Below are positions 4,303-58,382 of a stretch of DNA of 64,000 bases, in pieces. Below the pieces are notes generated by a model. It was not told the DNA's origin and did no database searches. It saw nothing but the letters and a program-made list of their open reading frames with translations. How positions within the stretch are numbered: position 1 is the first letter of the stretch; every line of letters begins with the position of its first letter. The translations under genes were made by a program, and so were the position numbers. Origin of the DNA: a virus (lineage: Duplodnaviria > Heunggongvirae > Uroviricota > Caudoviricetes); IMG/VR virus record IMGVR_UViG_3300051215_000059, one strand, 5' to 3'.

Positions 4303-4356
4303 AAGTGTCCCCAAATGATAAATACAGATGAGAGTTATTTACAGAGGGGATTGGTA

Positions 4357-5835: not shown

Positions 5836-7080
5836 ATGTCTGATAATAAAAACTACTCTTGCTCATTCTGTGGCAAGAACAAATCTGAAGTCAATACACT
5901 GATTGCAGGACCAGGAATTTATATTTGCGATGAGTGTATTGACTTATGCTATGACATTATTCATCAGAAGAAGTCAGAAAAACACGCAGCACTTGACAGT
6001 TTTCCCACACCAGAAGAAATCAAAGCACATCTTGACCAATACATTGTTGGTCAAGATGAGGCAAAAGAAGTCCTAAGTGTGGCAGTATACAATCACTACA
6101 AACGTATCAATCACTCAATGGATGACATTGAGATTGAAAAGTCAAACGTTATTCTACTTGGACCATCAGGGACGGGTAAAACTTTGATTGCAAAAACTGT
6201 CGCCAAAATCCTAGATGTTCCGTTTGCACAAGTTGACGCAACTACTCTTACCGAGAGTGGGTATGTTGGCGAAGACGTAGAAAATGTAGTTCAACGATTG
6301 TTGATCTCTGCCGACTTTGACGTAGAAAAGGCAGAGCGTGGAATCGTATACATTGATGAAATTGATAAGAAAGCCAAGAAGGGCGAAAACGTATCAATAA
6401 CAAAAGACGTATCTGGCGAAGGCGTCCAGCAAGCACTTCTCAAAATTGTAGAGGGAACGAAAGTTCGTGTTCCACCTGGTGGCGGAAGAAAGCACCCTGG
6501 CCAAGATATGATTGAAGTAGATACATCAAACATCTTGTTTGTTGTCGGTGGTGCATTTGTTGGTATTGACAAGATAATTGAAAAGCGTGTCAACAAAAAA
6601 AGTGGCATCGGATTTGGTGCAACAGTGAAGTCTGAAACGGATGAAGTAAATGTGCGAGAAAATATCTCTGCACAAGACCTTATCAAGTTCGGTCTTATTC
6701 CAGAGTTCATGGGACGTTTCCCCATTATCGTAGGCTTGGACAACCTGTCAGAAGAACAGCTTGTTCATGTTATGACTGCTCCCAAAAACAACATTGTTAG
6801 CCAGTTCATTCGTCTATTCCAATTGGATGAAGTTGAACTTGAATTCACTGAGGATGCAATTCGTGCGGTTGCAAAACAAGCCATAAATAATAAAACTGGG
6901 GCGCGTGGTCTTCGCAGTGTGATTGAGAAATCACTACTTCAACTACAATTCAAACTACCAACATTAGCAAAAGAGGGACTAACCAAGGTGATTATCACCA
7001 AAGAATTTATTGATGGAAGCAACAAACCAATCATGGTTTTCAACGACGAGCAAGGGTTCTCCGATACTCAAAATGACTAA
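5836..7080 (+). CDS. clpX: ATP-dependent Clp protease ATP-binding subunit ClpX
   Basis: N-terminal zinc-binding domain CSFCGK...CDECIDLC, Walker A GPSGTGKT, ClpP-docking IGFG loop, full-length 414 aa. Confidence 0.93.
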
Positions 7081-8678: not shown

Positions 8679-8981
8679 ATGGCAATAGCAGAAGTAAAAT
8701 CATCAAGTCGCACCGAAATAGAAATTACCGAACCTCTCAACTATTATGTTGTTATGCATAATGATGACACAACTCCAATGGATTTTGTGATTGAGGTTCT
8801 TGCAGAAATTTTTCATCATGATAATCAGACCGCAGTTGACTTGACGATGAAAATTCACGAAGAAGGCAAAGCAATTGTTGGAATGTATAATCTGGAAATT
8901 GCAGAGCAGAAAGTTTCAGATGTATCGTATGTTGCAAAAGCGCACGATTATCCTTTGAAGACTACTGTGGAGCCAGCCTAA
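8679..8981 (+). CDS. clpS: ATP-dependent Clp protease adaptor ClpS
   Basis: YYVVMHNDDTTPMDFVIEVLAEIFHHD...AVDLTMKIHEEGKAIVG matches ClpS core. Confidence 0.85.
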   Translation: MAIAEVKSSSRTEIEITEPLNYYVVMHNDDTTPMDFVIEVLAEIFHHDNQTAVDLTMKIHEEGKAIVGMYNLEIAEQKVSDVSYVAKAHDYPLKTTVEPA

Positions 8982-9700
8982 TGCCGATTGGCGTAATCTC
9001 TGCTATACCAGAAGAATATTCAAAACTATCTTGGGACACTGAACCAAGAACTGAAACAATCATCAACAAAATATTTCAATTTGGCACGATCAACGGCGTT
9101 GAAGTAATCGCGGCAGAATGTGGCATCGGCAAAGTAAACGCTGCCATGACAACTTCCTTACTGTTGGGTCATTACAATTGCGATGGTATCATTTTCAGTG
9201 GCGTTGCCGGCGGAATCAATCCGATACTTGATATTGGTCAAGTCATCATTGCGGACGAACTTATTCAGCATGATTATGGCACCATGTCAAAAAGCGTGTT
9301 TTTCAATGCTATCCCTGGTAGTTTTCCGGGTTACACAGAAGATGACAAGAACGTGTCATACAAAATGCCAACTGCAATGAAGAACACGATACGTCACCTT
9401 CTTGGTCCAGACCATGACGTTCACTTTGGAAAAGTCCTAACAGGTGACACGTATGTTGCTTGTAGCGTTACACGTGAACAACTAAGAAACAAATTTGGTG
9501 CAGATGCGGTTGAAATGGAAGGCGCAGCAATTGCGCAAGTGTGTTGTAACTGGAATAAGCCTTTCATCGTCATTCGTGTGTTGAGTGACTTGGCAGGAAA
9601 CACTTCGCATTTTGACTTTGATACATTTGTAGATGAAAGCAGCGAAAAAGCTGCAAGTTTGACACAAAAACTATTACCTATATTGGACGCTTGGCTATGA
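8981..9700 (+). CDS. mtnN: 5'-methylthioadenosine/S-adenosylhomocysteine nucleosidase
   Basis: PNP/UDP phosphorylase fold motifs GIGKVNAAMTTSLLL, FSGVAGGINP, AVEMEGAAIAQVC. Confidence 0.8.
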   Translation: MPIGVISAIPEEYSKLSWDTEPRTETIINKIFQFGTINGVEVIAAECGIGKVNAAMTTSLLLGHYNCDGIIFSGVAGGINPILDIGQVIIADELIQHDYGTMSKSVFFNAIPGSFPGYTEDDKNVSYKMPTAMKNTIRHLLGPDHDVHFGKVLTGDTYVACSVTREQLRNKFGADAVEMEGAAIAQVCCNWNKPFIVIRVLSDLAGNTSHFDFDTFVDESSEKAASLTQKLLPILDAWL

Positions 9701-11436: not shown

Positions 11437-12435
11437 ATGAATTTTATTATTTCGTATCTTTTGAGATACGTTTTCCAAGCGTGGCTGATTTCAAAATTGG
11501 CCAAATATATAAGAAAAACAATCGTAAACAAATACAAATTGGACGAACACTTTGTCCAAAACACAGAACGCTTTGCGGAAATTGATTGGGCCAATATTCG
11601 CTGGTTCGCAGTTCTTGCCGCATATGCATATAAAATAAACGATGATGTGATACGAAAAAAGTATGAAACATTTTCGGACATTTACATTCATGAAATAAAC
11701 CAAGTAAAATATATAGTCCTAAAAGACGTAGCGAATAAGAAGTATTACATTTCTATTCGTGGAACAACCAATTCCCACAATGCACTACAAGACATAAACT
11801 TTCTCAAGGACAAAAGTTTTCGTTTGGGAATACATCTGCACACAGGCTTTCACAGAACAGCAGAACTTATTGCAGATGACCTACTAAACCGTTTGGACAA
11901 AACATACAGTATATATCTAACTGGTCATAGTCTTGGTGCTGCACAAGCAGTTATTGTGGCATGGTATTTAGATTACAGTAACTTCAATATAGCCGAGTGC
12001 ATCACCTTCGGTCAGCCAAAGATTACAGATTCAATTGGAACTCGTGTGATGAGAGGAAAGATAAAACTTACTCGTATCGTCAACGAAACTGATATTGTGT
12101 CCATGGTTCCGCCAACTGGAACACATAGAAATAGATATGCACACCTTGGCACATTGATAAAGCTACTTGAAAGAGGCAAATACTGTTATTTGGATGAACC
12201 AGACAGCATGAACTATGGCGTGAATAGCTTTTGGTTATTTGCGGCAGAAGAAAGTTTGTCTTTTTATGAAATAGGAAAAGAACTACCAGACCATTACATG
12301 ACAAGTTACATTTCAAATATTGATTCAATCTTAGAAGATGGAAAAGAAGTGCTGTGGAAAGACCGAATGATGTATCTATCAGACAATAGTATATCTGGGG
12401 AACTGAAAAAAGTTACAGAAATGGAGATTGAATAA
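11437..12435 (+). CDS. class 3 (fungal-type) lipase family alpha/beta hydrolase with N-terminal TM anchor
   Basis: nucleophile elbow LTGHSLGAAQA (GHSLG), ISIRGT motif, hydrophobic N-terminus. Confidence 0.75.
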   Translation: MNFIISYLLRYVFQAWLISKLAKYIRKTIVNKYKLDEHFVQNTERFAEIDWANIRWFAVLAAYAYKINDDVIRKKYETFSDIYIHEINQVKYIVLKDVANKKYYISIRGTTNSHNALQDINFLKDKSFRLGIHLHTGFHRTAELIADDLLNRLDKTYSIYLTGHSLGAAQAVIVAWYLDYSNFNIAECITFGQPKITDSIGTRVMRGKIKLTRIVNETDIVSMVPPTGTHRNRYAHLGTLIKLLERGKYCYLDEPDSMNYGVNSFWLFAAEESLSFYEIGKELPDHYMTSYISNIDSILEDGKEVLWKDRMMYLSDNSISGELKKVTEMEIE

Positions 12436-22136: not shown

Positions 22137-24599
22137 ATGAAAACAACAAGGATAACCAACGCAACATTCGCAAAAAGTGTATCGTTACTAAAATCTTCTA
22201 CCGCACTACCAGAAATGTCGTATGTGTTTGAATTAAAATTTACATTGAATAATCCAAACACATACGATGGTGGTTCATATGCAGCAAACGACAAATTTGC
22301 AACTGCGATATCGACATCTGGAAACTACACAATCGTTGGTTCACAAGACGAGGGTGACGCTATCGGAACCATGTCTGGAGTTGCATATATATATTCAAAC
22401 TCAACTGGTCAATTATTATACACTCTTAGAAATCCAAATCCATTTGGAACAAGCACAAATGATTTTTTTGGACAGGCAGTCGCAATTTCTAACAATTATG
22501 CCATAGTTGGTGCATCAGAAAGCGATGCAAATGGAACGGCGTCAGGCAAAGCATATATATATTCTACATCCACAGGCCAATTGATATATACACTAGACAA
22601 TCCAAATCCAGTTGACACTAGTCAGAGTGATCGTTTTGGACAGGCAGTCGCAATTTCTGACAGTTATGTTATAGTTGGTGCAAACGGCGAGGACGATGCT
22701 GGGTTGAATTCGGGCAAGGCGTATGTCTTTTCTCTGGCAACTGGGCAATTAGTTTATCAACTTGATAACGTAAATGCCACCGGAACAACTGCTTCTGACT
22801 TGTTTGGAATATCCGTTGGTATAACTGATACATACGCAATTGTTGGCGCACATCAAGAAGATGTTGGTGGTTCAAGTTCAGGTTCTGCTTACATTTTCTC
22901 CATGTCTGATGGCTCCCTGCAATATACACTAAACAACCCAAATGCATATGGAACAAGTGCAAGTGATTTCTTCGGTAGATCAGTTGCAATTTCTAACAAT
23001 TATGCCATAGTTGGTGCATACGGCGAGGACGATGCAAATGGAACGACATCAGGCAAAGCGTATATATACTCATTGAGTAATGGGTCTTTACTATATACAT
23101 TGAACAATCCAAATCCAGTTGGAACAAGTGCAAATGACAATTTTGGATATTACATTGATGTATCTGACACACATGCTGTTATAAGCGCACATACAGAAGG
23201 AACCAGTGTTGGTGGTGGAGCAATTGCTACTACCGCTGGAAAAGCATATGTATATAACTTATCATCTGGAAGTCTGGTGTATACCATTGACGACCCAAAT
23301 GCTTTTTCAACGGCCACGGCAGATAATTTTTCACAATTTGCAGTTTCAATATCAAATGACTACGTGAGTGTTGGTGCATGGAACGAAGATTCTTCCAATG
23401 CAGCAGGGACTACAATCAACGCAACAGGGAGAGCTTATATATTCTCTGCAAGCAATGGCACACTTCTTCACACATTAACAAATCCAAACGCTTTCGGGTC
23501 TGGATCGTTTGACGAGTTTTCTCGTTACAACGGGGTGTCAGTTTCAAGTATGTATACCGTGATCGGTGCGGCGAATGAAGACTCTGATGGCGTAATGGAC
23601 GCGGGAAAAGCATATATATATTCAAACTCAACTGGACAATTACTATATACGCTGAACAATCCGATTACTGTAAGTCCTGGATATATAGCGTTTGGCACCT
23701 CAGTCGCAAACACAAATGATTATGTCGCAGTTGGGTCTCCATATGGGTATGTTCATGTATTTAATACTCAAGGCCAGTTTTTGCATACAATTACAAATCC
23801 AATAGCTTCACTTACATCCTTTGGCGACGACATTGATATTGAAGGAACTAATCTCATAGTGGGGTCATACGGCGCGACTGATGGCGGTCGGGCATATATC
23901 TATAATGTTGAAACTGGATCGCTATTATATACGCTTATAAATCCAAATGCTTTTGATACAGCGGCAAATGACAATTTCGGATATTCAGTTGGTATTTCTA
24001 ACAATTATGCAATCGTCGGCGCATCATTAGAGGATGATGCAAATGGAACGACATCAGGTAAAGCATATGTATATTCCACAACTACGGGTCAGTTGCTATA
24101 TACACTAGACAATCCAAATCCAGTTGGAACAAGCACGAATGACGGATTTGGAACTTCAGTCGCAATTTCTAACAACTATGCAATCGTCGGTGCATATGGA
24201 GAAAGCGATGCTGGTGGAACCAGTTCAGGAAAAGCATACATCTATTCCACAACTACGGGCCAATTGCTATATACACTAGACAATCCAACCCCATATGGAA
24301 CAAGTGCAAGTGATTACTTTGGGCGCTCAGTATCTATATCAAATAATTATGCTATAGTTGGGGCAGTTTTTGAAGATGATGCAAATGGTTTGTCGTCAGG
24401 TAAAGCATATGTATATTCCACAACTACTGGTCAGTTGCTATATACACTAGACAATCCGAATCCAGTTGGGACTAGTCAGAACGACAATTTTGGACAGTCA
24501 GTTGAAATTTCTGGTAACTATGCCATTTTTAGTGCGTATGGTGAAGATGAATCTAATGGATTAAATTCAGGTAAAGCATATCTATACACATTACCATAA
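22137..24599 (+). CDS. FG-GAP repeat (integrin-alpha-like beta-propeller) protein, 820 aa
   Basis: about 13 tandem ~57-aa units GKAYIYS.STGQLLYTLDNPNP.GTS..D.FGQSVAIS.NYAIVGA..EDDANG; RBS GGAGAAACAAC. Confidence 0.75.
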   Translation: MKTTRITNATFAKSVSLLKSSTALPEMSYVFELKFTLNNPNTYDGGSYAANDKFATAISTSGNYTIVGSQDEGDAIGTMSGVAYIYSNSTGQLLYTLRNPNPFGTSTNDFFGQAVAISNNYAIVGASESDANGTASGKAYIYSTSTGQLIYTLDNPNPVDTSQSDRFGQAVAISDSYVIVGANGEDDAGLNSGKAYVFSLATGQLVYQLDNVNATGTTASDLFGISVGITDTYAIVGAHQEDVGGSSSGSAYIFSMSDGSLQYTLNNPNAYGTSASDFFGRSVAISNNYAIVGAYGEDDANGTTSGKAYIYSLSNGSLLYTLNNPNPVGTSANDNFGYYIDVSDTHAVISAHTEGTSVGGGAIATTAGKAYVYNLSSGSLVYTIDDPNAFSTATADNFSQFAVSISNDYVSVGAWNEDSSNAAGTTINATGRAYIFSASNGTLLHTLTNPNAFGSGSFDEFSRYNGVSVSSMYTVIGAANEDSDGVMDAGKAYIYSNSTGQLLYTLNNPITVSPGYIAFGTSVANTNDYVAVGSPYGYVHVFNTQGQFLHTITNPIASLTSFGDDIDIEGTNLIVGSYGATDGGRAYIYNVETGSLLYTLINPNAFDTAANDNFGYSVGISNNYAIVGASLEDDANGTTSGKAYVYSTTTGQLLYTLDNPNPVGTSTNDGFGTSVAISNNYAIVGAYGESDAGGTSSGKAYIYSTTTGQLLYTLDNPTPYGTSASDYFGRSVSISNNYAIVGAVFEDDANGLSSGKAYVYSTTTGQLLYTLDNPNPVGTSQNDNFGQSVEISGNYAIFSAYGEDESNGLNSGKAYLYTLP

Positions 24600-24612
24600 T
24601 ATGAATGAGGAA

Positions 24613-24640
24613 AGAGGGGCATATGCCCCTCTTTTCCTTT
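24613..24640 (+). terminator. rho-independent terminator
   Basis: AGAGGGGCATATGCCCCTCT palindrome then TTTCCTTTT. Confidence 0.7.
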
Positions 24641-26632: not shown

Positions 26633-29299
26633 ATGAAAAAACTTCTACTTGCCCTTTTTATTTCATTGTCTGTAATCGTGTCCCCCGTGCTTGCTGGCAC
26701 AGTATATGACACAATTGCGAGTATCAAAAACAAAACAACACAGACCACACTTGCAACGAAATACATGAACCAATATTTGGGGTATATTCAAACATATTCT
26801 GCATACTTGGATGCCAACAAACATATGGATGGAAATGCAAGTTATGAATCATTGGAAGCAAAGGTTGCAATGTATAAAGAAGATGTTGCAAAGTTTGCAA
26901 TTCTTCTTGGTGTTCCGAACCCACTTCAGCCTACTGTTGTAAACACAACTTCAACTAAATCACAAAACACCGCAACAATCGTTTCTGACCCTGTGTTGGT
27001 GAATACGGTAGTTACAAATGATATTGTATACACTGATACCACTACCGACACTTATGAGGTCACCGTAAAGTATTATCAGACTACTACAACTGTTACTCTT
27101 ACCGAAACGGTTCTTACCACTACCTATTACAGTGACGGAACAAACAAAACAAATACCACTACAAATGTCATTTCAACGTCTTCGTCGGTATCAGAAACAC
27201 AAACTACTGACCGAGTTTTGATTAGTTCTGTTCAAAACACAGAAACCAGCCAGTCGGAGTTTTTGACTGCCGAAGAATATGCTGCTCGTAATGACGTAAG
27301 TCTAGCTGGAACACAAACGTTTATTGATGCAGTAAAAGTGACAAACCCATACTATACCAATAGCACTATTCTAAGCCCAAGTGGTCTTGGACTTTATGCA
27401 AACTGGCTTCCTGCTACTGGCGCTCATGTTGCATGGAGTCGTGGATACACTGGTGCTGGTTCAACCATTGCAATCCTAGATACTGGCATTGATTTGGACC
27501 ATCCAGAATTTGATGGACGTATCGTTGGGACCAAATGCTTTACTGTAATGTGCAAAAGTGGGTATGAAACCATTCAAGATAATAACTCAGTTTCGCATGG
27601 CACACATGTTGCTGGTATTGCGGGTGCAGCATTAGATGGCGTTGGCATGACTGGTGTTGCGCCTGACGCTGACCTGTTGATTGGCAAAATTGGTCATGAT
27701 AGCGGATATATTGAACTTGACCAACTTGGTAATGGTATCGCATGGGCAGTATCAAATGGCGCAGATGTAGTAAACGTAAGTGCCGAAATGAGTATGGATT
27801 CTACATACCGTAATAGTGTAGTGTCTATTGGCGATGGTTTTTACTATAGCACCTACAGCCCATACCAATCTCTTGGTTACAACCAAGTGCTAGATAGCAA
27901 CAACTTCACTGCTCCTGTTATCAGTGCGATGAGTGGAAATGACACTGTTCTTGTTGTGGCTGCTGGTAACCAAGGGTTGGCATTTCCAGCGTTTCCTGCT
28001 CACTATGCCACTATCACTGATGAAAATGGCAACCTTGCACTTGACGGTCGGGTAATCATTGCTGGTTCGTTTGACCTTGGAACAAATAATATTGCTTCTT
28101 ACTCAAACCGTGCTGGAACAATGTGCTATGATTACAATTCCGTAACTAATCAGTGTAACAATACCTATCGTGTTAGCGACTATTATTTGATGGCTCCTGG
28201 TTCTTGGGTCACTTCAACCGATAATGGTGGGGACTATCGTGCTCTGAGTGGAACATCTATGGCTGCTCCCGCTATTTCTGGTGGCGTAGCACTAGTTCAT
28301 CAAATGTGGCCATACATGACAGGCGATAATATTGTAAAACTACTCATGGAAACTGCGGACAAATCGTTTGCTGGCTATAATGTAAATATTCACGGTCAAG
28401 GCGTCATGGACCTTGATAACGCAACGTCTCCACAGGGTGCAATTGGTATTCCTACGACTGGTCGGATTGATGGGGCAACCGCTTCGCTTGATGGGCAACT
28501 TTCTGTTGCAGGGATGAATATGGCTTCGTTGTCCAGTATGATGGTCGTTGATGACTATGATCGAAACTTTTATGTTGATGGCAACAAACTGAACGTTGCT
28601 ACTGATACTCGCATGGTGAACCCAGTTCTGGCAGCATCGTATAACTCAAATGCAGACAATTACATGGGTTATACAAAAGGACTAAATATCAATATCGGCA
28701 ATGTTGCTGTATCTACAAACACTGATGGAACAAACTATGGTCTATCATATAACGCAGGATTTATGACATTCGGGATGATGAAAGAAGATGGTTCATTCCT
28801 TGGAAACACGGCGAACAGTCCAATCATGAATGTAACTGGTGCGACTACAACTTATGTAAGTTTCAATCCAGAAATTCAAACTGGAAACGGCTCACTGTTT
28901 GGGAGTATTGGATTTGGTGCGACTGACCTGAATGTTGGAGATAACTCTATGATGAAAAGTGCTGGAACTATAATCAGCAACACAGCAAGCATTGGTGCAA
29001 AATTCAACACGAAAAACGGACACTTTGGAGTTGTGGCGGCACTTCCAGTTTCCATTCAATCTGGGGAAGTGTCAATGGAATATGCATCTTCCGTAAGTGC
29101 TGAAGGTGTGGTATCATCTGCTTCTGCAACTGAATCTCTTGCGAATAATAGTCGTGAAGTAAATCTTGGTGTGTTTTACAATGTAGACGTAGCACCAATG
29201 ACTAACGTTTCTATGTTTGCAGAAGTTCGCGAAAATTACATGGGTATTGCTGGCGAAACCGCGCCACAGATTGGCTTTACCCTTACACAAAGGTTCTAA
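26633..29299 (+). CDS. secreted subtilisin-like (S8) serine peptidase with Thr-rich linker and C-terminal autotransporter-like beta-domain
   Basis: signal peptide MKKLLLALFISLSVIVSPVLA; catalytic D (AILDTGID), H (HGTHVAGI), S (GTSMAAP); C-terminus ends GFTLTQRF as in OM beta-barrels. Confidence 0.8.
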   Translation: MKKLLLALFISLSVIVSPVLAGTVYDTIASIKNKTTQTTLATKYMNQYLGYIQTYSAYLDANKHMDGNASYESLEAKVAMYKEDVAKFAILLGVPNPLQPTVVNTTSTKSQNTATIVSDPVLVNTVVTNDIVYTDTTTDTYEVTVKYYQTTTTVTLTETVLTTTYYSDGTNKTNTTTNVISTSSSVSETQTTDRVLISSVQNTETSQSEFLTAEEYAARNDVSLAGTQTFIDAVKVTNPYYTNSTILSPSGLGLYANWLPATGAHVAWSRGYTGAGSTIAILDTGIDLDHPEFDGRIVGTKCFTVMCKSGYETIQDNNSVSHGTHVAGIAGAALDGVGMTGVAPDADLLIGKIGHDSGYIELDQLGNGIAWAVSNGADVVNVSAEMSMDSTYRNSVVSIGDGFYYSTYSPYQSLGYNQVLDSNNFTAPVISAMSGNDTVLVVAAGNQGLAFPAFPAHYATITDENGNLALDGRVIIAGSFDLGTNNIASYSNRAGTMCYDYNSVTNQCNNTYRVSDYYLMAPGSWVTSTDNGGDYRALSGTSMAAPAISGGVALVHQMWPYMTGDNIVKLLMETADKSFAGYNVNIHGQGVMDLDNATSPQGAIGIPTTGRIDGATASLDGQLSVAGMNMASLSSMMVVDDYDRNFYVDGNKLNVATDTRMVNPVLAASYNSNADNYMGYTKGLNINIGNVAVSTNTDGTNYGLSYNAGFMTFGMMKEDGSFLGNTANSPIMNVTGATTTYVSFNPEIQTGNGSLFGSIGFGATDLNVGDNSMMKSAGTIISNTASIGAKFNTKNGHFGVVAALPVSIQSGEVSMEYASSVSAEGVVSSASATESLANNSREVNLGVFYNVDVAPMTNVSMFAEVRENYMGIAGETAPQIGFTLTQRF

Positions 29300-29300
29300 T

Positions 29301-30056
29301 ATGAGAATACAATTACTTACACATCCGCGATCCGGCAGCACATATTATGCCGGGTTGCTTGAACGATACATCAGAGAATATCCAGACTTTGAGATACAGT
29401 ATGAACCATTCAATATTGACTGGATTACCGCGAGAGAGAAGATTTCCCGTGATGAATTTCCAAAATATGCGGAAGAGCGTGTAGAGGCGTTTACCAAATC
29501 AAACCATTGTCTTGTCAAAAATCACATGTTCAACATGTTTCATCTTCACAGTATGGGAAATAATCTTTGGGATAGGTATATGTCTCTTGATTGGCACACT
29601 GTTGTGCTTGTTCGTAAAAATGTGTTTGACACCGTTATGAGTCTGGCGTTAGCCCGAACAAAAGATGTTTGGTTCTATGATAAAGACGCCACAGTTGACA
29701 AAAAATCCGTTCCTATTGATATATTTCACCGAACACTACTTGACTGTCTAAACAACTATCGAAAGTTTAGAAGTAATGAACTTGGTATCGTATACAATAA
29801 AGTGATTTATTATGAAGATTTGACATCTGACCCAATAGCAGATGTGAAGAAATCTGGCTTCATTCCAACTTACATAGAAAGTATGGAAAGCAGGGTTCAT
29901 CGGGGACCATCAAAAGAATCATCAATTGACAACATTGAACAACTCAGAAGATATTTCAATAGCTTTATGGTTTCAAACAAGATAAAGTTAGTAAAACCAG
30001 ATGGGTTTCTTGATGAAGAGTTTGCCAACTACGAGAGATTTATACCAAAATCATGA
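29301..30056 (+). CDS. sulfotransferase-family protein
   Basis: N-terminal PAPS 5'-phosphosulfate-binding loop THPRSGSTY; start ATG 29301 immediately after S8 stop. Confidence 0.5.
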   Translation: MRIQLLTHPRSGSTYYAGLLERYIREYPDFEIQYEPFNIDWITAREKISRDEFPKYAEERVEAFTKSNHCLVKNHMFNMFHLHSMGNNLWDRYMSLDWHTVVLVRKNVFDTVMSLALARTKDVWFYDKDATVDKKSVPIDIFHRTLLDCLNNYRKFRSNELGIVYNKVIYYEDLTSDPIADVKKSGFIPTYIESMESRVHRGPSKESSIDNIEQLRRYFNSFMVSNKIKLVKPDGFLDEEFANYERFIPKS

Positions 30057-30550
30057 TAAACGCAATATTTGCAATGGACGACAATTGGGGCATAGGAAAG
30101 AACGGCGACTTGCCATGGCCCCGTAACTCTGCCGACTTGAAATGGTTCAAAGATTGCACCAATGGTCATTCGGTGGTAATGGGAAGAAAGACATGGGATA
30201 GCCTTCCATATAAACCACTATCCAACCGTCTGAACTTTGTAATATCGTCTTCCATGAATCCAAATGAATGGAAGAACGCACCCCATGGAGTATATAGTGG
30301 CAATCCTTCTAGAATCATCAAGGAAATCATAGAAACTAGATACTCGGAATACATTACATGGGTCATCGGCGGCGCTTCGCTTATTGAAGACTGCCTTGAT
30401 ATTATAGATGAATTGTGGATAAGTAATATTAGTGGAATATATGATTGTGACGTGTTTTTACCAAAAGAAAAAATAACAAGCCAATTCTATATTCACAATA
30501 ACGAAATAATAGATAGCGGACTATCTATCACAAAATGGAGAAAAAAATGA
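30053..30550 (+). CDS. folA: dihydrofolate reductase
   Basis: MINAIFAMDDNWGIGKNGDLPW...VVMGRKTW...GG DHFR signature. Confidence 0.85.
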   Translation: MINAIFAMDDNWGIGKNGDLPWPRNSADLKWFKDCTNGHSVVMGRKTWDSLPYKPLSNRLNFVISSSMNPNEWKNAPHGVYSGNPSRIIKEIIETRYSEYITWVIGGASLIEDCLDIIDELWISNISGIYDCDVFLPKEKITSQFYIHNNEIIDSGLSITKWRKK

Positions 30551-30873
30551 GTGTTGTGACACTAACCGACAAAGCAATCAATCACTTTACTAATATCGCA
30601 TCTGGAAAACTGGTGAAGTTTGGCATCATCGGTGGTGGATGCGCGGGTTTCCAATACCATTGGGAAATATTCGATGAAGTCAAGGACCATATGTTTGGCG
30701 ATGAGGTTCAAGAATACGATAACTTCACTCTGTATGTTGACAGTCACAGCCTAATGTATCTTATCGGAACGACTGTTGATTATGTCAGCGATATCACTGG
30801 AAGTAAAATTGAACTTTTCAATCCAAATGCACAATCTGGCTGCGGATGTGGAGTTTCGGTGAACTTTGCGTAA
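30535..30873 (+). CDS. A-type iron-sulfur cluster carrier (IscA/ErpA/HesB family)
   Basis: GGGCAGFQY ... C-terminal GCGCGVSF cysteine motif. Confidence 0.8.
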   Translation: MEKKMSVVTLTDKAINHFTNIASGKLVKFGIIGGGCAGFQYHWEIFDEVKDHMFGDEVQEYDNFTLYVDSHSLMYLIGTTVDYVSDITGSKIELFNPNAQSGCGCGVSVNFA

Positions 30874-31318: not shown

Positions 31319-32716
31319 ATGACTGGACTTATTCTAGGCATCGTCTTTATTATTGCGGCAATCGCAATCAAAGCTGTGCCTCTGGTGCCTGAACTACGAA
31401 AAGTAAAAACAATCGTTTCATCTGCGGTCGCCGTTTTTGGTGTTGCAATTATCGGTCTTGGGGCCGTAAGTTACAATGACGCTGGATACTGCCAACACAC
31501 TCGGAGTATTTTTGGAACAGAAACCGCAGTTTGCGAAACAGGTTGGTTTTTTGTCGGTTGGGGAACTTCTACCGCATGGCCTCACTTCATTACAGTCGCA
31601 AACACGATTGATATTGAAGCGGATGGCAGTTCTGTCACGGGTCCATATCGTGTTCGCCTAGCAGACAACTGGACAGGTGATGTTACTCAGACCACTCGTT
31701 TTGCAATCCCACAAGATCAAGAACAATTCTTGACGATGGCACGAACCTTCCGTAGTCCTGAGCGTCTGATTAGCACTACTCTGAAACCTGCCGTTACTGC
31801 ATCGCTTGACTCGGTTTCCAACATGTTTACCATGGAAGAATACTACTCTGGTGGTAAGCGGGACCAATTCAAGAGCGAGTTCAAAGATACTGTTGAAAAG
31901 GGTCGTGCGCAAGTTCGTCAAGTGTCTTTCAACCAAGCGGGTGGCGTAATTCCTAGTCGTGCCGCTCCATCAAGTAGCGATGTTGCTGCCGACACTTCAG
32001 AAGTTGGCGACACAGAAGTTCGTCGTGTTATGATGGAAAAAGTGACAGACGCAAGCGGCAATGACATCCGAACCCCACATGACTTTGCGGAAATCGGTGT
32101 TGTTGTATCATCTGCAATTCTTGAAAACATTGACCCAGATGATGAATATGAGCGTCAAATTGGTGAACGTAAGAAAGCTGCGTCTCGTCGTGTAGTTGCT
32201 CGTGAACAACGCCTTGAGCAAGAAGAACAGCGTCTGCTGGCTATTCAACAAGGTGAAACTGACATTGCCAAGCGTCAAGCAGAAGCAAAAGTGGAACAGA
32301 TTGAAAAGACTACAAACGCCGAAACCACGAAAAAACTTGCTCTAATTGAAGCTGAACGTATCCGCGAGGAAGCCCGAATTGCACAAGAAACCTCGGAAAT
32401 CAATCTGGAACGTGCAAAGGTTGACGCACAATCTGTAACTGTTGCTGCCGATGCAGAAGCCTACGCCAAACAAGCTATCCTTGAAGCTGACGGTGCGCTA
32501 CAACAGAAACTTGATGCTTGGGTTGAAGCACAACGTGTATGGGCAGACGCCGCATCTAAAATCAATGTTCCTTCCACTGTGATTGCTGGTGGTGGTAGCG
32601 ATGGGACTGCGGGAAATGCACTTGGAACCGTAGACCAGTTTATGCAACTGATGATGCTAAACTCTGCAAAGCAACTGAGTGTTGATCCTACTATCGGAAA
32701 CCCTGTAAAGCAGTAA
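31319..32716 (+). CDS. SPFH/band-7 (prohibitin/flotillin/HflKC-like) membrane protein with long C-terminal coiled coil
   Basis: N-terminal TM, SPFH core, Ala/Glu/Gln-rich heptads (IEAERIREEARIAQE...). Confidence 0.75.
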   Translation: MTGLILGIVFIIAAIAIKAVPLVPELRKVKTIVSSAVAVFGVAIIGLGAVSYNDAGYCQHTRSIFGTETAVCETGWFFVGWGTSTAWPHFITVANTIDIEADGSSVTGPYRVRLADNWTGDVTQTTRFAIPQDQEQFLTMARTFRSPERLISTTLKPAVTASLDSVSNMFTMEEYYSGGKRDQFKSEFKDTVEKGRAQVRQVSFNQAGGVIPSRAAPSSSDVAADTSEVGDTEVRRVMMEKVTDASGNDIRTPHDFAEIGVVVSSAILENIDPDDEYERQIGERKKAASRRVVAREQRLEQEEQRLLAIQQGETDIAKRQAEAKVEQIEKTTNAETTKKLALIEAERIREEARIAQETSEINLERAKVDAQSVTVAADAEAYAKQAILEADGALQQKLDAWVEAQRVWADAASKINVPSTVIAGGGSDGTAGNALGTVDQFMQLMMLNSAKQLSVDPTIGNPVKQ

Positions 32717-32733
32717 CCACACAAGAATCAAAA

Positions 32734-32757
32734 AAGGCGACTTCGGTCGCCTTTTTT
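32734..32757 (+). terminator. rho-independent terminator
   Basis: AAGGCGAC-ttcg-GTCGCCTT then TTTTT. Confidence 0.8.
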
Positions 32758-32758
32758 G

Positions 32759-33469: not shown

Positions 33470-34105
33470 ATGAAAAACAAAGTCATCCCCGTTCCAAAAG
33501 AAACACCAGCGCCACAAACCCCTCCACCACCACCGCCAGCGCCACCAAGTCCACCAAAACAGCTAGGTGAATACTTGCGCGACAATGGTGTGTTGTTTAT
33601 GGACAAAGAGTTCAATCAAGAAAATTGTATGCCACTAGTAAAAATGATTATGGAATACAACTTGATGCCAGCCGATAGAGCACCAGAAGTGATTCATCTA
33701 TATATCAACAGCCCTGGTGGTTACGTTGACAGTTGTATGCATCTGATTGACATTATCAAACAAAGTCGTATTCCAGTATATACCTATGGAATGGGAAGCA
33801 TTGCAAGTTGTGGTGTGATGCTCATGATGTCAGGAGAAAAGGGACACCGTTACCTGACACAAAACACCGCTGTTATGAGCCATGAATTTAGTGGTGGCAC
33901 TCGTGGCCAATACCATGATATGGTTGAAAGCCGCAAACACATGGATTGGACAAACGACAAGTTGCTTGAACACTACATCAAATGCACTGGCAAAACGGAA
34001 AAGTATATTCGTAAGCACTTGCTTGCGCCAAAAACAGACCACTGGCTAACACCAGAAGAAGCAGTCCAACATGGTATTGCTGACGTGGTTGTAGAAACAT
34101 ACTAA
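33470..34105 (+). CDS. clpP: ATP-dependent Clp protease proteolytic subunit ClpP with proline-rich N-terminal extension
   Basis: catalytic Ser in GMGSIASCG, His in MSHEFSGG, Asp in KTDHWL; ClpP fold; N-terminal PAPQTPPPPPPAPPSPP extension. Confidence 0.85.
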   Translation: MKNKVIPVPKETPAPQTPPPPPPAPPSPPKQLGEYLRDNGVLFMDKEFNQENCMPLVKMIMEYNLMPADRAPEVIHLYINSPGGYVDSCMHLIDIIKQSRIPVYTYGMGSIASCGVMLMMSGEKGHRYLTQNTAVMSHEFSGGTRGQYHDMVESRKHMDWTNDKLLEHYIKCTGKTEKYIRKHLLAPKTDHWLTPEEAVQHGIADVVVETY

Positions 34106-37099: not shown

Positions 37100-38164
37100 A
37101 TGCTAAAAAGTTTCTTTTGGAACAGAGAAACCGCGTTATATTCTTGGCTAATGTTAGCATGGTTGCTATTCGTTGGTTGGTATAGCGTTGAAATTCTCGT
37201 ATATTATAATGCGTGGAACAGAGAGTTCTATGATGCCATACAAACGCTACAAGAGGAAACCTTTTGGGAATTGTTATGGGGTTGGGATACAGGAAGATTT
37301 TTTGACTTTCTAATGCTAAGAATCGACTCCGAAATGATTGTTCCCAGTTTCTTGGAAATCATTGTGCTATACACTCCAATCGCAGTTTATTCAACGTGGC
37401 AAACACAGCGTTACACGTTTGCATGGAGAGAAGCAAACACGATGTATTATCTAAAGCGTTGGGAAAAATCAACGGCAAAGATTGAAGGTGGCTCACAGCG
37501 TATACAAGAAGACTTGATGGTCTTTGGAAAAACACTACAAGGTCTATTTGCTGGATTTGTGAATAAGATTTTTGTTCTTGCAGCTTTCTTGCCAGTTTTG
37601 TGGAATCTGAGCGAAGGACTGCCAGTGTGGGGCGACCAAATAATTCCTGGGTTCTTGGTGTGGGTTGCTCTTACCATGTCCTTGGGCGGAACATTGCTGT
37701 CATTCTTGTTGGGTATAAAACTTCCTGGGTTAGAATATAACAACCAAGTGGTAGAAGCACAGTTTAGAAAGAAGTTAGTTCATTCCGAAGATGATTTCAA
37801 CCATCGTTTGACCGCAGACCTATTCCCTATGTTTGCTTCAATCAAACGTAACTATTATCGTTTGTTCAACTGGTATATGGGATTTGGTGTATGGCAAACC
37901 GCATTTGGTATGATAGCAGGAAACGTGGCTCTTGTTGTGCTGGCACCAAGCTATTTCGCACAGTTGGTTACATTTGGTGTTCTCATACAAGTTCTAAATG
38001 CGTTTGGACGAGTTGAAAGTGCGCTTACATACTTCATTGACCGTTGGACAACGATTGTTGATTTCCAGTCTGTTATAAAGCGTTTACGAGAATTCAACAG
38101 AGTGTTGGACGAAGCTGACGCCAACTCGGCTAATGCGACACCACCAAGTAACCCCACACCATAA
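37100..38164 (+). CDS. SbmA/BacA-family inner-membrane peptide transporter homologue
   Basis: 8-TM protein; motifs MLKSFF, NAWNREFYDAIQT, QRIQEDL...AFLPVLW, GIKLPGLEY, KRNYYRLF, RWTTIVDF, IKRLREF line up with SbmA as recalled from memory. Confidence 0.6.
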   Translation: MLKSFFWNRETALYSWLMLAWLLFVGWYSVEILVYYNAWNREFYDAIQTLQEETFWELLWGWDTGRFFDFLMLRIDSEMIVPSFLEIIVLYTPIAVYSTWQTQRYTFAWREANTMYYLKRWEKSTAKIEGGSQRIQEDLMVFGKTLQGLFAGFVNKIFVLAAFLPVLWNLSEGLPVWGDQIIPGFLVWVALTMSLGGTLLSFLLGIKLPGLEYNNQVVEAQFRKKLVHSEDDFNHRLTADLFPMFASIKRNYYRLFNWYMGFGVWQTAFGMIAGNVALVVLAPSYFAQLVTFGVLIQVLNAFGRVESALTYFIDRWTTIVDFQSVIKRLREFNRVLDEADANSANATPPSNPTP

Positions 38165-41719: not shown

Positions 41720-42079
41720 ATGAGCACTGGAAAATATTCACCTCTCTGCCCTCACGCCAATGAAAGCGGATGGGAAATGTTCAAATACAACTGCTATGGC
41801 GAAGTCCCCGCAGAATGGAATCAAGAAGTCTATGAAGATGGAATCGAATATGATGAAAAAACCATGTTTGGCGACTACGACAGTGAAGGTTTTGACAGTT
41901 ACGGATACTCTGCCTTTGATGCTGACGGTGAATACGTTGGGATTGGCAATGGCATTGATCGGTATGGCTATACTGAAATGGACTATCTGACAGACTCCAT
42001 CAACGGTGGAAATCTTCATTCGGACTTACAATGTGGATACGGAACTCCACTCACTGCCTTTATTCGGGAGAAAAAATAA
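41720..42079 (+). CDS. hypothetical acidic protein
   Basis: 119 aa. Confidence 0.5.
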   Translation: MSTGKYSPLCPHANESGWEMFKYNCYGEVPAEWNQEVYEDGIEYDEKTMFGDYDSEGFDSYGYSAFDADGEYVGIGNGIDRYGYTEMDYLTDSINGGNLHSDLQCGYGTPLTAFIREKK

Positions 42080-43089
42080 TGCGTAAACTAGCCTCTATTC
42101 GTCGGATTGCCGACATTCAGCCCATTGAAGGTGCTGATGCTATTGTTGTGGCCACAGTTGATGGCTGGAAAGTTGTGGTCAAGAAAGACGAGTTTCAAGT
42201 TGGTGACCTTGCCGTTTACCTTGAAATCGACTCTTGGGTGCCAACTGAACTTGCTGCGTTCCTGTCAAAAGGACAAGAACCTCGTGAATACAATGGGGTG
42301 AAAGGTGAACGGCTTCGCACTGTCAAACTGCGTGGGCAAGTTTCACAAGGTCTTCTTTTGAAACTTGATGCGGAAGGTGTGAAAGGAAAACTGTTCTTTA
42401 CTCTTCCAGAAGAAGGAGTTGATGTAACCGAAATCCTTGGTATTCAAAAGTGGGAACCAGAAATCCCTGCTCAACTTGCTGGTCAAGTTCGCGGTCTGTT
42501 TCCTACCAGCCTGATTCCTAAAACTGACCAAGAACGTATCCAAAACTGTTTCCAAGAGATTCAGGATAAGGGTGATGTTACTTACGAAGTAACTATGAAA
42601 CTGGACGGAACCAGTTGCACTATCTTCCGTTGGGAAGGCGAAGTTCGCGTTTGCAGTAGGAACCTTGAACTCAAGATCAATGACGAGAACCGAGACAACA
42701 CCCTTGTTGCAATGGCTCTCAAGATCGGTGATCGCATTCCGAACGGTTACGCTGTTCAAGGTGAAGTCATGGGCCCAGGTATTCAAGGAAACCGCGAAGG
42801 GTTCACTGAACACAAGTTCTTCGTGTTCGACGTCTTCGACATTCAGAAGCATGAATACCTAGAACCAAAGACTCGGCGCATGGTCTGCAATGCAAAATAC
42901 TTTGACCATGCTCCTGTTCTTGGTAATGACTGGAAATCCCCTGCTTCGGTTGAACAAGGTCTTGCTATTGCCGAAGGTCCAAGTATCGCCCATAAGGTTC
43001 GTGAAGGTCTTGTGTGGAAGTGCAACGAAGACCCAAGTTTCAGCTTCAAGACAATCAGCAATCAGTTCCTTCTGAAAGGTGGGGACTGA
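42079..43089 (+). CDS. ATP-dependent RNA ligase, Rnl5/DraRnl-NgrRnl-like
   Basis: N-terminal OB-like MRKLASIRRIADIQPIEGAD...VGDLAVYLEIDSWVP; nucleotidyltransferase motif I VTMKLDGTS. Confidence 0.6.
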   Translation: MRKLASIRRIADIQPIEGADAIVVATVDGWKVVVKKDEFQVGDLAVYLEIDSWVPTELAAFLSKGQEPREYNGVKGERLRTVKLRGQVSQGLLLKLDAEGVKGKLFFTLPEEGVDVTEILGIQKWEPEIPAQLAGQVRGLFPTSLIPKTDQERIQNCFQEIQDKGDVTYEVTMKLDGTSCTIFRWEGEVRVCSRNLELKINDENRDNTLVAMALKIGDRIPNGYAVQGEVMGPGIQGNREGFTEHKFFVFDVFDIQKHEYLEPKTRRMVCNAKYFDHAPVLGNDWKSPASVEQGLAIAEGPSIAHKVREGLVWKCNEDPSFSFKTISNQFLLKGGD

Positions 43090-53447: not shown

Positions 53448-53651
53448 ATGCAAAAAGTTCTAATGGTCGATCCGCCAGAAGGTTGGAAGTATGGATTTCC
53501 AAAACAGATGCATGACGAATATTTTCTGTTGGGAGAAGATTTTGATTTTGAGCGTTGGTTGGTTTCAGAAGGCTATCCGCAATCAATCATAGATAGTTTT
53601 CCGAACAAAGAAATTTTTTGTCGTTGTTGGTGGGCTGAGATAGAAGAATGA
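53448..53651 (+). CDS. hypothetical protein
   Basis: AGAGAGGAATGAA RBS then ATG 53448. Confidence 0.4.
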   Translation: MQKVLMVDPPEGWKYGFPKQMHDEYFLLGEDFDFERWLVSEGYPQSIIDSFPNKEIFCRCWWAEIEE

Positions 53652-54367
53652 TACTAGTTATCGGATGTGGATTTGTTGGCGAAACTGTTGCGACAAGCCT
53701 AGAAAGAAATGGTTATGTTGTAGGTCGGGTTGACCCAAAACTGGAAACTGACCTTTCCAGTTTTTCCAACTATCAATCAGCAATTATATGTTTGCCAACT
53801 CCAACTGTAGATGGAAAATGTGATGATTCACTAATACGGTTCATCATTGGGAAACTCGGTGATATTCCCATACTGTTGAAAAGCACAGTTCCGCCTGACC
53901 TCATTGCACTATATCCAGATAATGTAAGTTATTATCCAGAATTTTTACGGGCGGCTCATGCGTATGAAGATTTCAAGAACCAAAAAGTTATGGTTATTGG
54001 CGGCGACCATGCGCAATTGTTTTATTGGAAACACGTGTTTTCATACATTGAAGCCAATGTCATGGAAACCGACAGACATACTGCAAGCATGGTAAAGTAT
54101 ATGCACAACGTGTGGCTTGCAACAAAGGTTGCGTTCTTTCACGAGATATACTCTCTCGTTCCAGAAGCTAATTTTTACTCTATGGTGAATATTCTTGCAC
54201 AATTTCCAAATATGGGTCCAAGTCACATGATGGCACCAAATGATGAGGGCGGGCTAGGGTTCGGTGGATATTGCTTTCCAAAAGATACAGAGGCGTTTTT
54301 GAAGTTCAGCAACAGTGAAATTCTTCGTAAGGTCATTGAAGTGAACGATAAACTAAGAAAGTTATAA
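53648..54367 (+). CDS. UDP-glucose/GDP-mannose dehydrogenase family protein, truncated (N-terminal NAD-binding plus central domain only)
   Basis: Rossmann VIGCGFVGETVA; central KYMHNVWLATKVAFFHEI; catalytic-Cys motif GFGGYCFPKDTEAF; lacks C-terminal UDP-sugar-binding domain. Confidence 0.55.
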   Translation: MILVIGCGFVGETVATSLERNGYVVGRVDPKLETDLSSFSNYQSAIICLPTPTVDGKCDDSLIRFIIGKLGDIPILLKSTVPPDLIALYPDNVSYYPEFLRAAHAYEDFKNQKVMVIGGDHAQLFYWKHVFSYIEANVMETDRHTASMVKYMHNVWLATKVAFFHEIYSLVPEANFYSMVNILAQFPNMGPSHMMAPNDEGGLGFGGYCFPKDTEAFLKFSNSEILRKVIEVNDKLRKL

Positions 54368-58196: not shown

Positions 58197-58382
58197 ATGC
58201 AGATGCGTTTTAAAAACAAAAAAGAAATGACCGATTGGGCTTACGAACAATTTGACAAGTTTGGGGTTCGTAAACCAGAATCGTATACTGAACAGGAATT
58301 GATTAATTTAAATCCAAGTGTTCCTGTTGATTTCATAAAACAACATGTAAAAAATAGGAATAAGAATGCGCATAGAAAATGA
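58197..58382 (+). CDS. small hypothetical protein
   Basis: ATG 58197 after terminator, within ORF-track frame. Confidence 0.35.

Follow-up and report, generated by a model that had tools for sequence, protein, structure and literature searches.

Background

Phages are known to send small proteins into the host envelope; Lom and Bor of lambda, Llp of T5, and the OMP-like barrels of cyanophages are all phage products sent to the host outer membrane. Phages send such proteins there while they infect or lysogenise the cell, in many cases for the sake of exclusion or of host fitness, and to our knowledge none of them possesses a protease domain or belongs to the barrel family described below. Among the subtilase autotransporters, NalP and SphB1 are lipidated and surface-exposed, and Ssp has a 248-residue beta-helix between its S8 domain and its barrel (PMC9977779).

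The window, i.e. the whole stretch of 64,000 nt analysed here (IMG/VR virus record IMGVR_UViG_3300051215_000059, Caudoviricetes) and assigned to an uncultured marine giant phage, contains a gene for an apparently active subtilase, the tail of which is modelled as an outer-membrane barrel whose sequence family had not been classified before, followed by a gene for a probable sulfotransferase.

The protease gene and its catalytic domain

The gene and the N-terminal and catalytic parts of its product were as follows:

26633..29299 (stop codon included), + strand: gene of a secreted subtilase with a predicted C-terminal outer-membrane barrel (ORF list, Pfam S8, homologues, AF2)
26633..26695, + strand: signal peptide of the Sec pathway (SPase I type), aa 1-21; predicted cleavage site behind VLA (sequence, hydropathy)
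26699..27235, + strand: N-terminal extension, helices at aa 23-92 and then Thr-rich long beta-hairpins at aa 102-201 (AF2 DSSP, composition)
27452..28399, + strand: Peptidase S8 catalytic domain, aa 274-589 (Pfam)
27479-27481, + strand: catalytic D283 (DTGID)
27596-27598, + strand: catalytic H322 (HGTHVAG)
27968-27970, + strand: oxyanion N446 (AAGN)
28256-28258, + strand: catalytic S542 (GTSMAAP)

An AGGAG ribosome-binding site was located 8 nt upstream of the start codon, and the deduced product of 888 aa, which ends in GFTLTQRF, was modelled by AF2 with a pLDDT of 84. Its N-terminus, MKKLLLALFISLSVIVSPVLA with Gly following the cleavage site, is a canonical Sec signal by sequence and hydropathy and is disordered in the AF2 model; a Sec signal with AxA was present in all 40 homologues compared. 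The region at aa 274-589 scored 124.8 bits with PF00082 (Peptidase_S8; cut-off 21.8, E 5e-36) and adopts the subtilisin alpha/beta fold. It contains the Asp-His-Ser triad in subtilase order together with the oxyanion Asn, and these four residues (D283, H322, N446 and S542) were invariant across the 40 homologues and kept in 10 distant ones. Judged by these residues, the protein is apparently a catalytically competent protease of the subtilisin type. Cysteine in the S8 domain is limited to two closely spaced invariant pairs, C302/C307 and C498/C508. A role as prohead protease was rejected on the grounds that a signal peptide and a barrel are present and that the gene lies outside a structural module.

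Thus, the S8 peptidase with signal peptide and intact triad that had been proposed in a preliminary description of this DNA holds, while the Thr-rich linker described there between protease and barrel does not: the Thr-rich stretch lies at aa ~100-205 and is modelled as long beta-hairpins, and it cannot serve as passenger-barrel linker because it is N-terminal to the S8 domain. The N-terminal extension to which it belongs had a pLDDT of 60-84 by DSSP of the AF2 model and is missing from homologues of 660-770 aa.

The linker and the C-terminal barrel

Two further regions follow the S8 domain:

28427..28681, + strand: conserved 85-aa linker between S8 domain and barrel, aa 599-683 (alignments, DSSP)
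28682..29296, + strand: predicted C-terminal outer-membrane beta-barrel domain, aa 684-888 (~205 aa), of ~12-13 antiparallel strands

The linker is not Thr-rich. Two motifs in it, GIPTTGR[IV]D as well as [MT]V[VL]DD[YF]DR[ND], define the family and also retrieve homologues from genome and viral collections; its secondary structure is limited to short helices and strands (DSSP). Beyond it, the C-terminus was all-beta with a pLDDT of ~90 in two independent AF2 models, 13 strand segments were assigned by DSSP, and dyad hydrophobicity was kept in the strands, a picture consistent with a closed antiparallel transmembrane beta-barrel. The domain closes with an amphipathic strand ending in an invariant Phe, F888, and the terminal pattern G-h-x-h-x-h-x-F was observed in 40 of 40 homologues, the window protein having Gln at position -3. 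The protein thus combines an aromatic-ended C-terminal beta-signal with an N-terminal Sec signal. The same barrel fold bears a VCBS-repeat passenger in an uncultured phage protein (BFVD A0A6J5L9S5, TMq 0.69). The models support the outer-membrane barrel of the preliminary description, at the C-terminus ending in GFTLTQRF, with a length of ~205 aa in place of the ~300 aa given there.

No known family was recovered with this domain. Pfam scanning of the window protein's C-terminus at E up to 10 gave noise only and no autotransporter or OMP family, and so did NCBIfam scanning at permissive E-values; In 15 diverse family members no PF03797 match appeared at E up to 1, nor is this domain among the precomputed Pfam assignments of 135 listed homologues. 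When the barrel alignment was run as a profile against PDB, one spurious match and no autotransporter came back; homologue searching with the barrel profile yielded S8-linked fragments only, with no alternative architectures. As neither Pfam nor PDB has a sequence family that includes the barrel, it is a candidate new OMP or translocator family. Mean-field DCA of 164 unique linker-plus-barrel sequences (Meff 82), aimed at barrel closure and the position of the linker, was too noisy to be informative, giving only a few hairpin contacts and a weak signal between the linker and strand 843-854.

Distribution of the family and phage context

Full-length homologues of the protease fell into more than 120 clusters sharing 40% to 85% identity, almost wholly on contigs of uncultured aquatic large phages. 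These homologues and all 76 homologous loci in IMG/VR possess the S8 domain, the linker and the barrel. Some relatives carry a lipobox, LTAC-GGGGGG; such lipoprotein variants were found in low-GC phage contigs and in two cultured Pelagibacter isolates, HIMB1509 and HIMB1746, where they adjoin an integrase gene and tRNA-Met.

We infer a phage origin of the window from PHROG hits, the one-strand packing of small genes, the presence of relatives in IMG/VR, and distant similarity at the protein level to T4-like phages, namely those of Alphaproteobacteria; no structural gene within the window is involved in this assignment. Related contigs span 246-355 kb, with JGI Ga0633745_000040 and JAOHXO010000001.1 among the complete ones of 320-350 kb, and the genome is probably ~250-350 kb in size. 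Other window genes encode an SbmA/BacA-like importer, PNP, IMPDH/GMP reductase, DHFR and a lipase. Neither the locus nor the first 25 kb had a megablast match among 50,697 GenBank phages; tblastn against the GenBank phages gave S8-domain matches only for the protease (coverage at most 40%), none for the barrel alone (50,697 records), and none for the sulfotransferase alone. The T4-type late promoter TATAAATA was not enriched in the window, and scans for sigma-70 promoters and terminators were uninformative save for hairpins at 24.6 and 32.7 kb. Literature searches for a jumbo-phage subtilisin or autotransporter and for a phage sulfotransferase returned nothing relevant.

The sulfotransferase-like gene and its neighbours

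Downstream of the protease gene, the following were predicted:

29301..30056, + strand: cytoplasmic sulfotransferase-like protein, 251 aa (weak Pfam match, conservation among relatives, profile match)
29319-29342, + strand: 5'-PSB THPRSGST, aa 7-14
29517-29525, + strand: K73-N-H75
29613-29642, + strand: 3'-PB R105...S114 (V-L-V-R105-K-N-V-F-D-T-V-M-S114)
30053..30550, + strand: dihydrofolate reductase (Pfam DHFR_1, E 3e-31; phrog_316)
30535..30873, + strand: A-type Fe-S carrier, IscA/ErpA-like (Pfam Fe-S_biosyn, E 2e-13)

The sulfotransferase-like protein starts with MRIQLLTHPRSGSTY and lacks a signal peptide. Its match to Sulfotransfer_3 was below threshold (20.2 bits, cut-off 27, E 8e-4), and at E up to 0.01 Sulfotransfer_3 was detected in 20 and Sulfotransfer_1 in 4 of 70 relatives. 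The loop THPRSGSTY, earlier taken to bind PAPS, has the features of a 5'-PSB: its H8-P-R-S-G-S-T14 aligns with the loop of NodH and CurM ST and fits P-[KR]-[ST]-G-[ST]-[ST], with R10 invariant and G12 near-invariant among the 70 relatives. The 3'-PB motif, the lack of which would have counted against the preliminary description, was likewise present, with R105 and S114 invariant in the same set and an alignment to I-L-E-R-E-N-K-L-A-S-Y-S-S of NodH. Near-invariant K73 and H75 align with K-T-H of NodH and are presumably catalytic, by analogy with cytosolic sulfotransferases. The family is small, with 215 distant relatives (representatives), which associate with, and are partly fused to, radical-SAM/SPASM enzymes and not proteases. 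A PDB profile search with six close sequences gave noise and became informative once distant relatives were added, the family profile then matching NodH (9vki, E 2.9e-4) and CurM ST (6e-3). These motifs indicate a probable PAPS-type sulfotransferase. No APS-kinase-like P-loop ORF was found in the window; most plausibly, the gene is a separate accessory of its clade and the enzyme would draw on host PAPS.

Proposed role of the protease

A signal peptide, an apparently active S8 domain and a predicted outer-membrane barrel tail occur in one protein; the phage therefore probably installs this protease in the host envelope. On balance, we favour a catalytically competent protease placed in the outer membrane of a diderm (Gram-negative) marine host, most likely facing the surface, where it would cleave envelope or surface proteins. 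We infer insertion by BAM, the membrane side of the S8 domain, what it cleaves and what the phage gains as follows. The Sec system would export the protease by means of the signal peptide at aa 1-21, and the last ~205 residues would then fold into a small outer-membrane barrel of ~12 strands. An amphipathic C-terminal strand ending in Phe is the usual BAM recognition signal, and the C-terminal strand would recruit BAM in this way. Barrel and 85-aa linker would tether the S8 domain to the outer membrane, with the cell surface as its most likely location as in the subtilase autotransporters NalP and SphB1, and the S8 domain would cleave host envelope or surface proteins; this may serve to shave receptors, against superinfection or the loss of progeny on debris, or to remodel the surface otherwise.

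Closely spaced Cys pairs are tolerated by autotransporter passengers. Surface display is favoured because the Cys residues of the S8 domain form such pairs only, because the lipobox of relatives resembles the lipidated NalP and SphB1, and because a VCBS-repeat passenger occurs on the same barrel fold (BFVD A0A6J5L9S5). Counted against the favoured reading as a whole are the failure of Pfam, NCBIfam and the PDB profile search to connect the sequence with any autotransporter or OMP family, and the AF2 models, in which no long pore-spanning helix, beta-helix or autochaperone is predicted and DSSP assigns 13 strand segments.

As a tentative extension, which we think rather unlikely in this full form, the S8-linker-barrel arrangement may be a new, largely phage-borne and self-contained class of outer-membrane display or secretion, sister to but outside the type V autotransporters, that would put an active protease on the surface of infected cells and so re-engineer this surface, with receptor shaving as one example of its use. 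This proposal points to linker motifs peculiar to it (GIPTTGR[IV]D, MVVDDYDRN), the lack of a pore helix or beta-helix stalk, and other passengers (VCBS repeats), as well as to use by many lineages of large aquatic phages, some linked to SAR11.

A protease anchored in the outer membrane and facing the periplasm is possible but has perhaps one chance among several: the barrel would be an anchor only and the linker a FadL-like plug. With the same modest likelihood, such a periplasmic S8 domain may degrade periplasmic or outer-membrane-tethering proteins for lysis, destroy components of incoming phages, or recycle abundant periplasmic proteins into peptides. Against this reading, the coevolution signal is weak (Meff 82), and the VCBS-repeat passenger on the same barrel fold is of a usually extracellular type. 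Moreover, lipidated proteins with S8 and C-terminal barrel of known topology (NalP and SphB1) are surface-exposed (PMC9977779).

Nutrient scavenging, in which a surface protease digests dissolved or particulate protein and the imported peptides feed replication of a ~250-350 kb genome, appears improbable. It would suit a window rich in metabolic and transport genes (those for the importer, PNP, IMPDH/GMP reductase, DHFR and lipase), a protease gene situated among nucleotide-metabolism genes and not structural ones, and the porins and TonB-type receptors of uncultured marine phages listed in BFVD, but it is doubtful that one planktonic cell would profit from a public-goods protease within a single latent period, and subtilase autotransporters of known role process surface proteins (PMC9977779).

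The preliminary description had joined protease and sulfotransferase into one unit acting on the host envelope or the virion, with DHFR and the IscA-like carrier in it. The 1-nt gap that it reported is real (the next ATG is at 29301), the pair is retained in three related loci with protease identities as low as 49%, and the stretch between 24.6 and 32.7 kb is free of terminator-like hairpins. Against these points, the sulfotransferase follows the protease in the three closest loci only (protease 49% to 85% identical where measured) and is missing from the 6-kb flanks of all 76 IMG/VR loci; thymidine kinase or unrelated genes follow elsewhere, e.g. in loci L001 and L004. Furthermore, the sulfotransferase lacks the signal peptide of the exported protease, its distant relatives go with radical-SAM/SPASM enzymes, and tight gene packing is the rule throughout the window. 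Since the pairing is confined to the closest clade, there is no evidence for a protease-sulfotransferase module, and a common target for the two enzymes is highly unlikely; DHFR and the Fe-S carrier are co-directional neighbours. Nor was a virion or depolymerase-like role of the protease supported, and that the C-terminal domain is a soluble beta-rich part of a virion-associated or secreted (depolymerase-like) protease, for which the missing OMP Pfam match is the sole point, is scarcely credible.

A protease with its own outer-membrane barrel would represent a previously undescribed phage route to edit the host surface or periplasm, conserved and enzymatically intact in more than 100 lineages of uncultured marine and aquatic large phages and found nowhere described in the literature search. 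The candidate new OMP or translocator family could help define the minimal requirements of autotransporter-like secretion, and the Pelagibacter relatives beside integrase and tRNA-Met offer an experimentally tractable handle and tie the family to the most abundant bacteria of the ocean. With the sulfotransferase comes a further family of PAPS enzymes, small and poorly annotated, with viral and microbial members.

Comparison with known systems

The sulfotransferase-like protein shares with NodH / LPS sulfotransferase, Stf0 and CurM ST (Sulfotransfer_3) the 5'-PSB P-R-S-G-S-T, K-x-H and the 3'-PB R-x8-S, but the similarity is limited to the N-terminal nucleotide-binding half, the acceptor-binding half being unique. 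The S8 proteases of phrog_3677 (Bacillus phages SP-15, Goe3, Tsamsa and others) share the subtilase domain with 26% to 30% identity over aa ~240-600, but lack the linker and barrel and belong to phages of monoderm hosts. With the small monomeric outer-membrane barrels OmpG, FadL/TodX, PorV, KdgM/NanC and FapF, the phage barrel shares 8% to 16% identity and no profile-level similarity; those proteins are channels or transport components, whereas the phage barrel appears to be an anchor fused to an enzyme.

In architecture, the protease resembles the type Va autotransporters (NalP, SphB1, Ssp and EprS), which have a Sec signal, an N-terminal passenger and a C-terminal beta domain in the same order. 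In contrast to these, no member of the phage family gives a PF03797 signal, and the modelled phage protein lacks a beta-helix stalk or autochaperone, with 85 residues between S8 domain and barrel. An alpha-helical pore linker is likewise not predicted, the longest helix in aa 599-683 being of 6 residues in both AF2 models. The phage protein also differs in possessing an N-terminal extension of ~250 aa (aa 22-273) before the S8 domain and a shorter barrel (~205 aa), and its genes are carried by large uncultured phages and not by the chromosomes of pathogens.

The protease gene and its family

The locus comprised two adjacent genes:

26633-29299, +, protease (S8 subtilase with predicted C-terminal barrel), 888 aa, ending in GFTLTQRF
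29301-30056, +, sulfotransferase-like ORF, 251 aa, first ATG 1 base past the protease stop

An AGGAG ribosome-binding site preceded the protease gene by 8 nt. The protease possessed a Peptidase_S8 domain at aa 274-589 (Pfam, E 5e-36) and an N-terminus (MKKLLLALFISLSVIVSPVLA, followed by G) that matched a Sec signal in its charge, hydrophobic core and AxA-like site. The ORF, its terminus, the S8 domain and the signal peptide were thus as stated in the preliminary description, and the D/H/S triad reported there as intact was invariant (D283, H322, S542) in an alignment of 40 sequences, as was the oxyanion residue N446. The Thr-rich stretch, proposed as a linker between protease and barrel, was misplaced; it lies at aa ~100-205 and precedes the S8 domain.

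A search of 5.8 billion proteins yielded >120 clusters of full-length homologues (~880-940 aa, 40-85% identity), nearly all unnamed or annotated as "subtilisin family serine protease". Also invariant in the alignment were two closely spaced Cys pairs (C302/C307, C498/C508), the terminal F888, and linker and barrel residues including D640, D643, R644, G714 and G846; all 40 homologues had the Sec signal and a G-h-x-h-x-h-x-F ending, and the 85-aa linker carried the family-specific motifs GIPTTGR[IV]D and [MT]V[VL]DD[YF]DR[ND]. The protease feature is real and conserved. Two groups of invariant polar residues were observed, which, speculatively, may contact the lumen or mark a site of autocleavage within the barrel, as in SPATE autotransporters:

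28550-28576, +, aa 640-648, linker (D640, D643, R644)
28784-28807, +, aa 718-725, early barrel strand (E718, G724, N725)

Distribution

A pattern scan found 76 protease loci in IMG/VR. Their reconstructed ORFs fell into three architectures, and the S8 domain was intact in each:

(a) 880-940 aa, SPase I signal, Phe at the end; the clade of the window
(b) 1160-1250 aa, lipobox LTAC-GGGGGG, ~55-aa Cys-containing tail beyond the barrel
(c) 660-770 aa, no N-terminal extension

Architecture (b) occurred on low-GC (30-34%) large phage-like contigs (loci L041-L047 and L058-L062; e.g. L062, 3487-7110, surrounded by genes for a Lon-like protease, a cytidyltransferase, a 2OG-Fe oxygenase and radical SAM proteins), which may be large SAR11 phages. 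Homologues generally resided on long contigs of small one-strand genes with many nucleotide-metabolism genes, among them a 350 kb contig (JGI), TARA scaffolds and a 322 kb single-contig NCBI MAG deposited as "bacterium" (L001; GCA_028125345.1, JAOHXO010000001.1). Around the L001 protease were small one-strand genes, GTP cyclohydrolase I, radical SAM, SufE and SAM synthetase, a layout that looks like a jumbo phage genome.

The barrel was not found in any isolated GenBank phage, isolated phages sharing the S8 domain only. Megablast of the locus and the first 25 kb detected no nucleotide-level relative of the window among 50,697 GenBank phage records; single window proteins had distant matches to T4-like Alphaproteobacteria phages and Alishewanella phages. 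Four cellular loci were present among 185,579 species genomes, in two Pelagibacter isolates, one SAR116 MAG and one alphaproteobacterial MAG. The Pelagibacter homologue was a 1223-aa lipoprotein (E 1e-88 to the window protease); in Candidatus Pelagibacter sp. HIMB1509 (L008, 3430-8689) it comprised lipobox LSLSAC-GGGGGG, S8 domain, linker motifs and barrel and adjoined a tyrosine integrase and tRNA-Met, and HIMB1746 (L009) had the same arrangement. Judging from this position, the cellular copies are apparently carried by an integrated mobile element or a prophage.

The sulfotransferase-like gene and other window genes

The ORF at 29301 matched Sulfotransfer_3 weakly (E 8e-4, below threshold) and had five close homologues and, in an exhaustive profile search, 215 distant relatives. 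Alignment of 70 sequences showed R10 (5'-PSB loop PRSGST), R105, S114 (3'-PB) and N211 to be invariant and G12, Y15, K73, H75, E172 and K205 nearly so, and 20 of the 70 matched Sulfotransfer_3 and four Sulfotransfer_1. The family profile matched the LPS sulfotransferase NodH (9vki, E 2.9e-4), with 5'-PSB, K-x-H and 3'-PB aligned, and CurM ST (E 6e-3). The PAPS-binding loop was therefore present as proposed, together with the 3'-PB, and from motif conservation and profile matches the product was accepted, at the superfamily level, as a probable PAPS-type sulfotransferase. It lacked a signal peptide, and no APS-kinase-like ORF was found in the 64-kb window. Since distant relatives were fused to or adjacent to radical-SAM/SPASM enzymes, the acceptor could be a peptide or small molecule; examples were P0152 and P0191 (fused to SPASM/radical-SAM domains) and a member beside three radical-SAM genes (L011, 1205-5622).

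Strong terminator-like hairpins with 12-13 bp stems (24609-24636 and 32729-32758) flanked an 8-kb co-directional block containing the protease, sulfotransferase, DHFR, IscA and SPFH genes. The DHFR and A-type Fe-S carrier (IscA) genes described as following in the same unit were identified by Pfam (30053-30550; 30535-30873), but are ordinary phage metabolic genes. No tRNAs were found in the 64-kb window. Other genes were:

4315-5826, +, accessory, PG_binding_3 membrane protein
5836-7080, +, ClpX (zinc finger and AAA)
8981-9700, +, accessory, purine nucleoside phosphorylase
11437-12435, +, accessory, class 3 lipase
22137-24599, +, 820-aa protein, 11 FG-GAP_2 repeats (E 1e-111), no signal peptide
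31319-32716, +, SPFH/Band 7 membrane protein
33470-34105, +, ClpP/NfeD-like serine protease
37100-38164, +, SbmA/BacA-like inner-membrane peptide transporter (Pfam E 7e-78)
42031-43089, +, accessory, RNA ligase
53648-54367, +, accessory, short UDP-glucose dehydrogenase-like ORF
58366-59538, +, accessory, IMPDH/GMP reductase

The ClpP/NfeD-like gene lay ~750 bp 3' of the SPFH/Band 7 gene, an order reminiscent of stomatin-NfeD pairs. The SbmA/BacA-like transporter could import peptides and is a possible partner of an envelope protease.

Barrel fold and membrane orientation

The AlphaFold2 model of the whole protease (pLDDT 84.4) began with a disordered signal peptide, helices (aa 23-92) and long beta-hairpins (aa 102-201), followed by a confidently modelled subtilisin domain, a linker (aa 599-683) of lower confidence with just 3-6-residue helices and short strands, and an all-beta C-terminus (aa 684-886; 13 DSSP strand segments, pLDDT ~90). 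The figures listed for known barrels against this C-terminus were 11.6 (OmpG), 11.2 (Vibrio OmpT porin), 11.1 (PorV), 11.0 (FadL), 10.7 (KdgM), 10.4 (EspP and FapF), 10.1 (Hbp), 9.7 (NalP), 9.3 (EstA), 9.2 (AIDA-I) and 9.0 (BrkA). Hydrophobicity, averaged over 40 homologues, alternated along the predicted strands. Model, matches and alternation thus favour the outer-membrane barrel of the preliminary description over a soluble sandwich, and the predicted fold resembles outer-membrane barrels generally, not autotransporter translocators specifically.

In the reading that we find most likely, and consider somewhat probable, the protease would be exported by Sec, its barrel inserted in a BAM-dependent manner, and the active subtilase displayed at the outer membrane of the host. 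There, probably on the cell surface, it would cleave envelope proteins; receptor shaving or exclusion would be the favoured purpose. In FadL, an N-terminal hatch enters the barrel from the periplasm and plugs it. The likeness of the modelled barrel to FadL, PorV and TodX and the missing pore helix argue for an outer-membrane-anchored protease with its S8 domain facing the periplasm, a reading considered rather unlikely. The lipobox relatives, the close Cys pairs in the S8 domain and a VCBS-repeat passenger favour the surface. The last was seen in BFVD A0A6J5L9S5, from another uncultured phage, joined to the same barrel fold (TMq 0.69); BFVD A0A6J5TBB6 was a 689-aa S8 homologue (E 3e-13). The lipobox relatives recall NalP and SphB1, which are lipidated and surface-acting (PMC9977779). 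DCA (Meff 82) gave a noisy signal.

A role of the protease in nutrient scavenging is improbable. More doubtful still is the joint envelope- or virion-modifying module of protease and sulfotransferase put forward earlier: the three closest loci retained the pair (L003 and L006, with proteases 85% and 49% identical to that of the window, and L012, with a sulfotransferase 88% identical), whereas no sulfotransferase homologue lay within 6 kb of the protease in 76/76 IMG/VR loci, and the protease was followed by thymidine kinase in L004 and by unrelated genes in L001. By this comparison of loci, the protease gene is conserved widely, and the sulfotransferase is an insertion specific to its clade, in a slot of variable content. 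Tight spacing, as in the 1-nt gap between the two genes, is the norm across the window, where nearly all ORFs of at least 120 aa (64/80) are on the + strand. A soluble or virion-associated protease is hardly credible against the modelled all-beta C-terminus, its barrel matches and the strand alternation.

Relation to known autotransporters

PF03797, the sequence family that defines autotransporters, was absent from the window protease at E up to 10, from 15 diverse family members at E up to 1, and from the precomputed domains of homologues among the matches listed; profile search against all PDB sequences found no OMP. The signal, enzyme passenger and C-terminal barrel with final Phe nevertheless follow the autotransporter order, and the architecture of the protease is therefore described as autotransporter-like, its barrel belonging to an unclassified family. 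No description of a phage autotransporter-like subtilase was found in the literature searched; the protease family varies the theme of autotransporter-like subtilases by this barrel and by its mostly viral distribution. Neither a long pore helix nor a beta-helix stalk was predicted by AlphaFold2. Ssp, a subtilase autotransporter, carries a 248-residue beta-helix (PMC9977779); the protease instead has the 85-aa motif-bearing linker.
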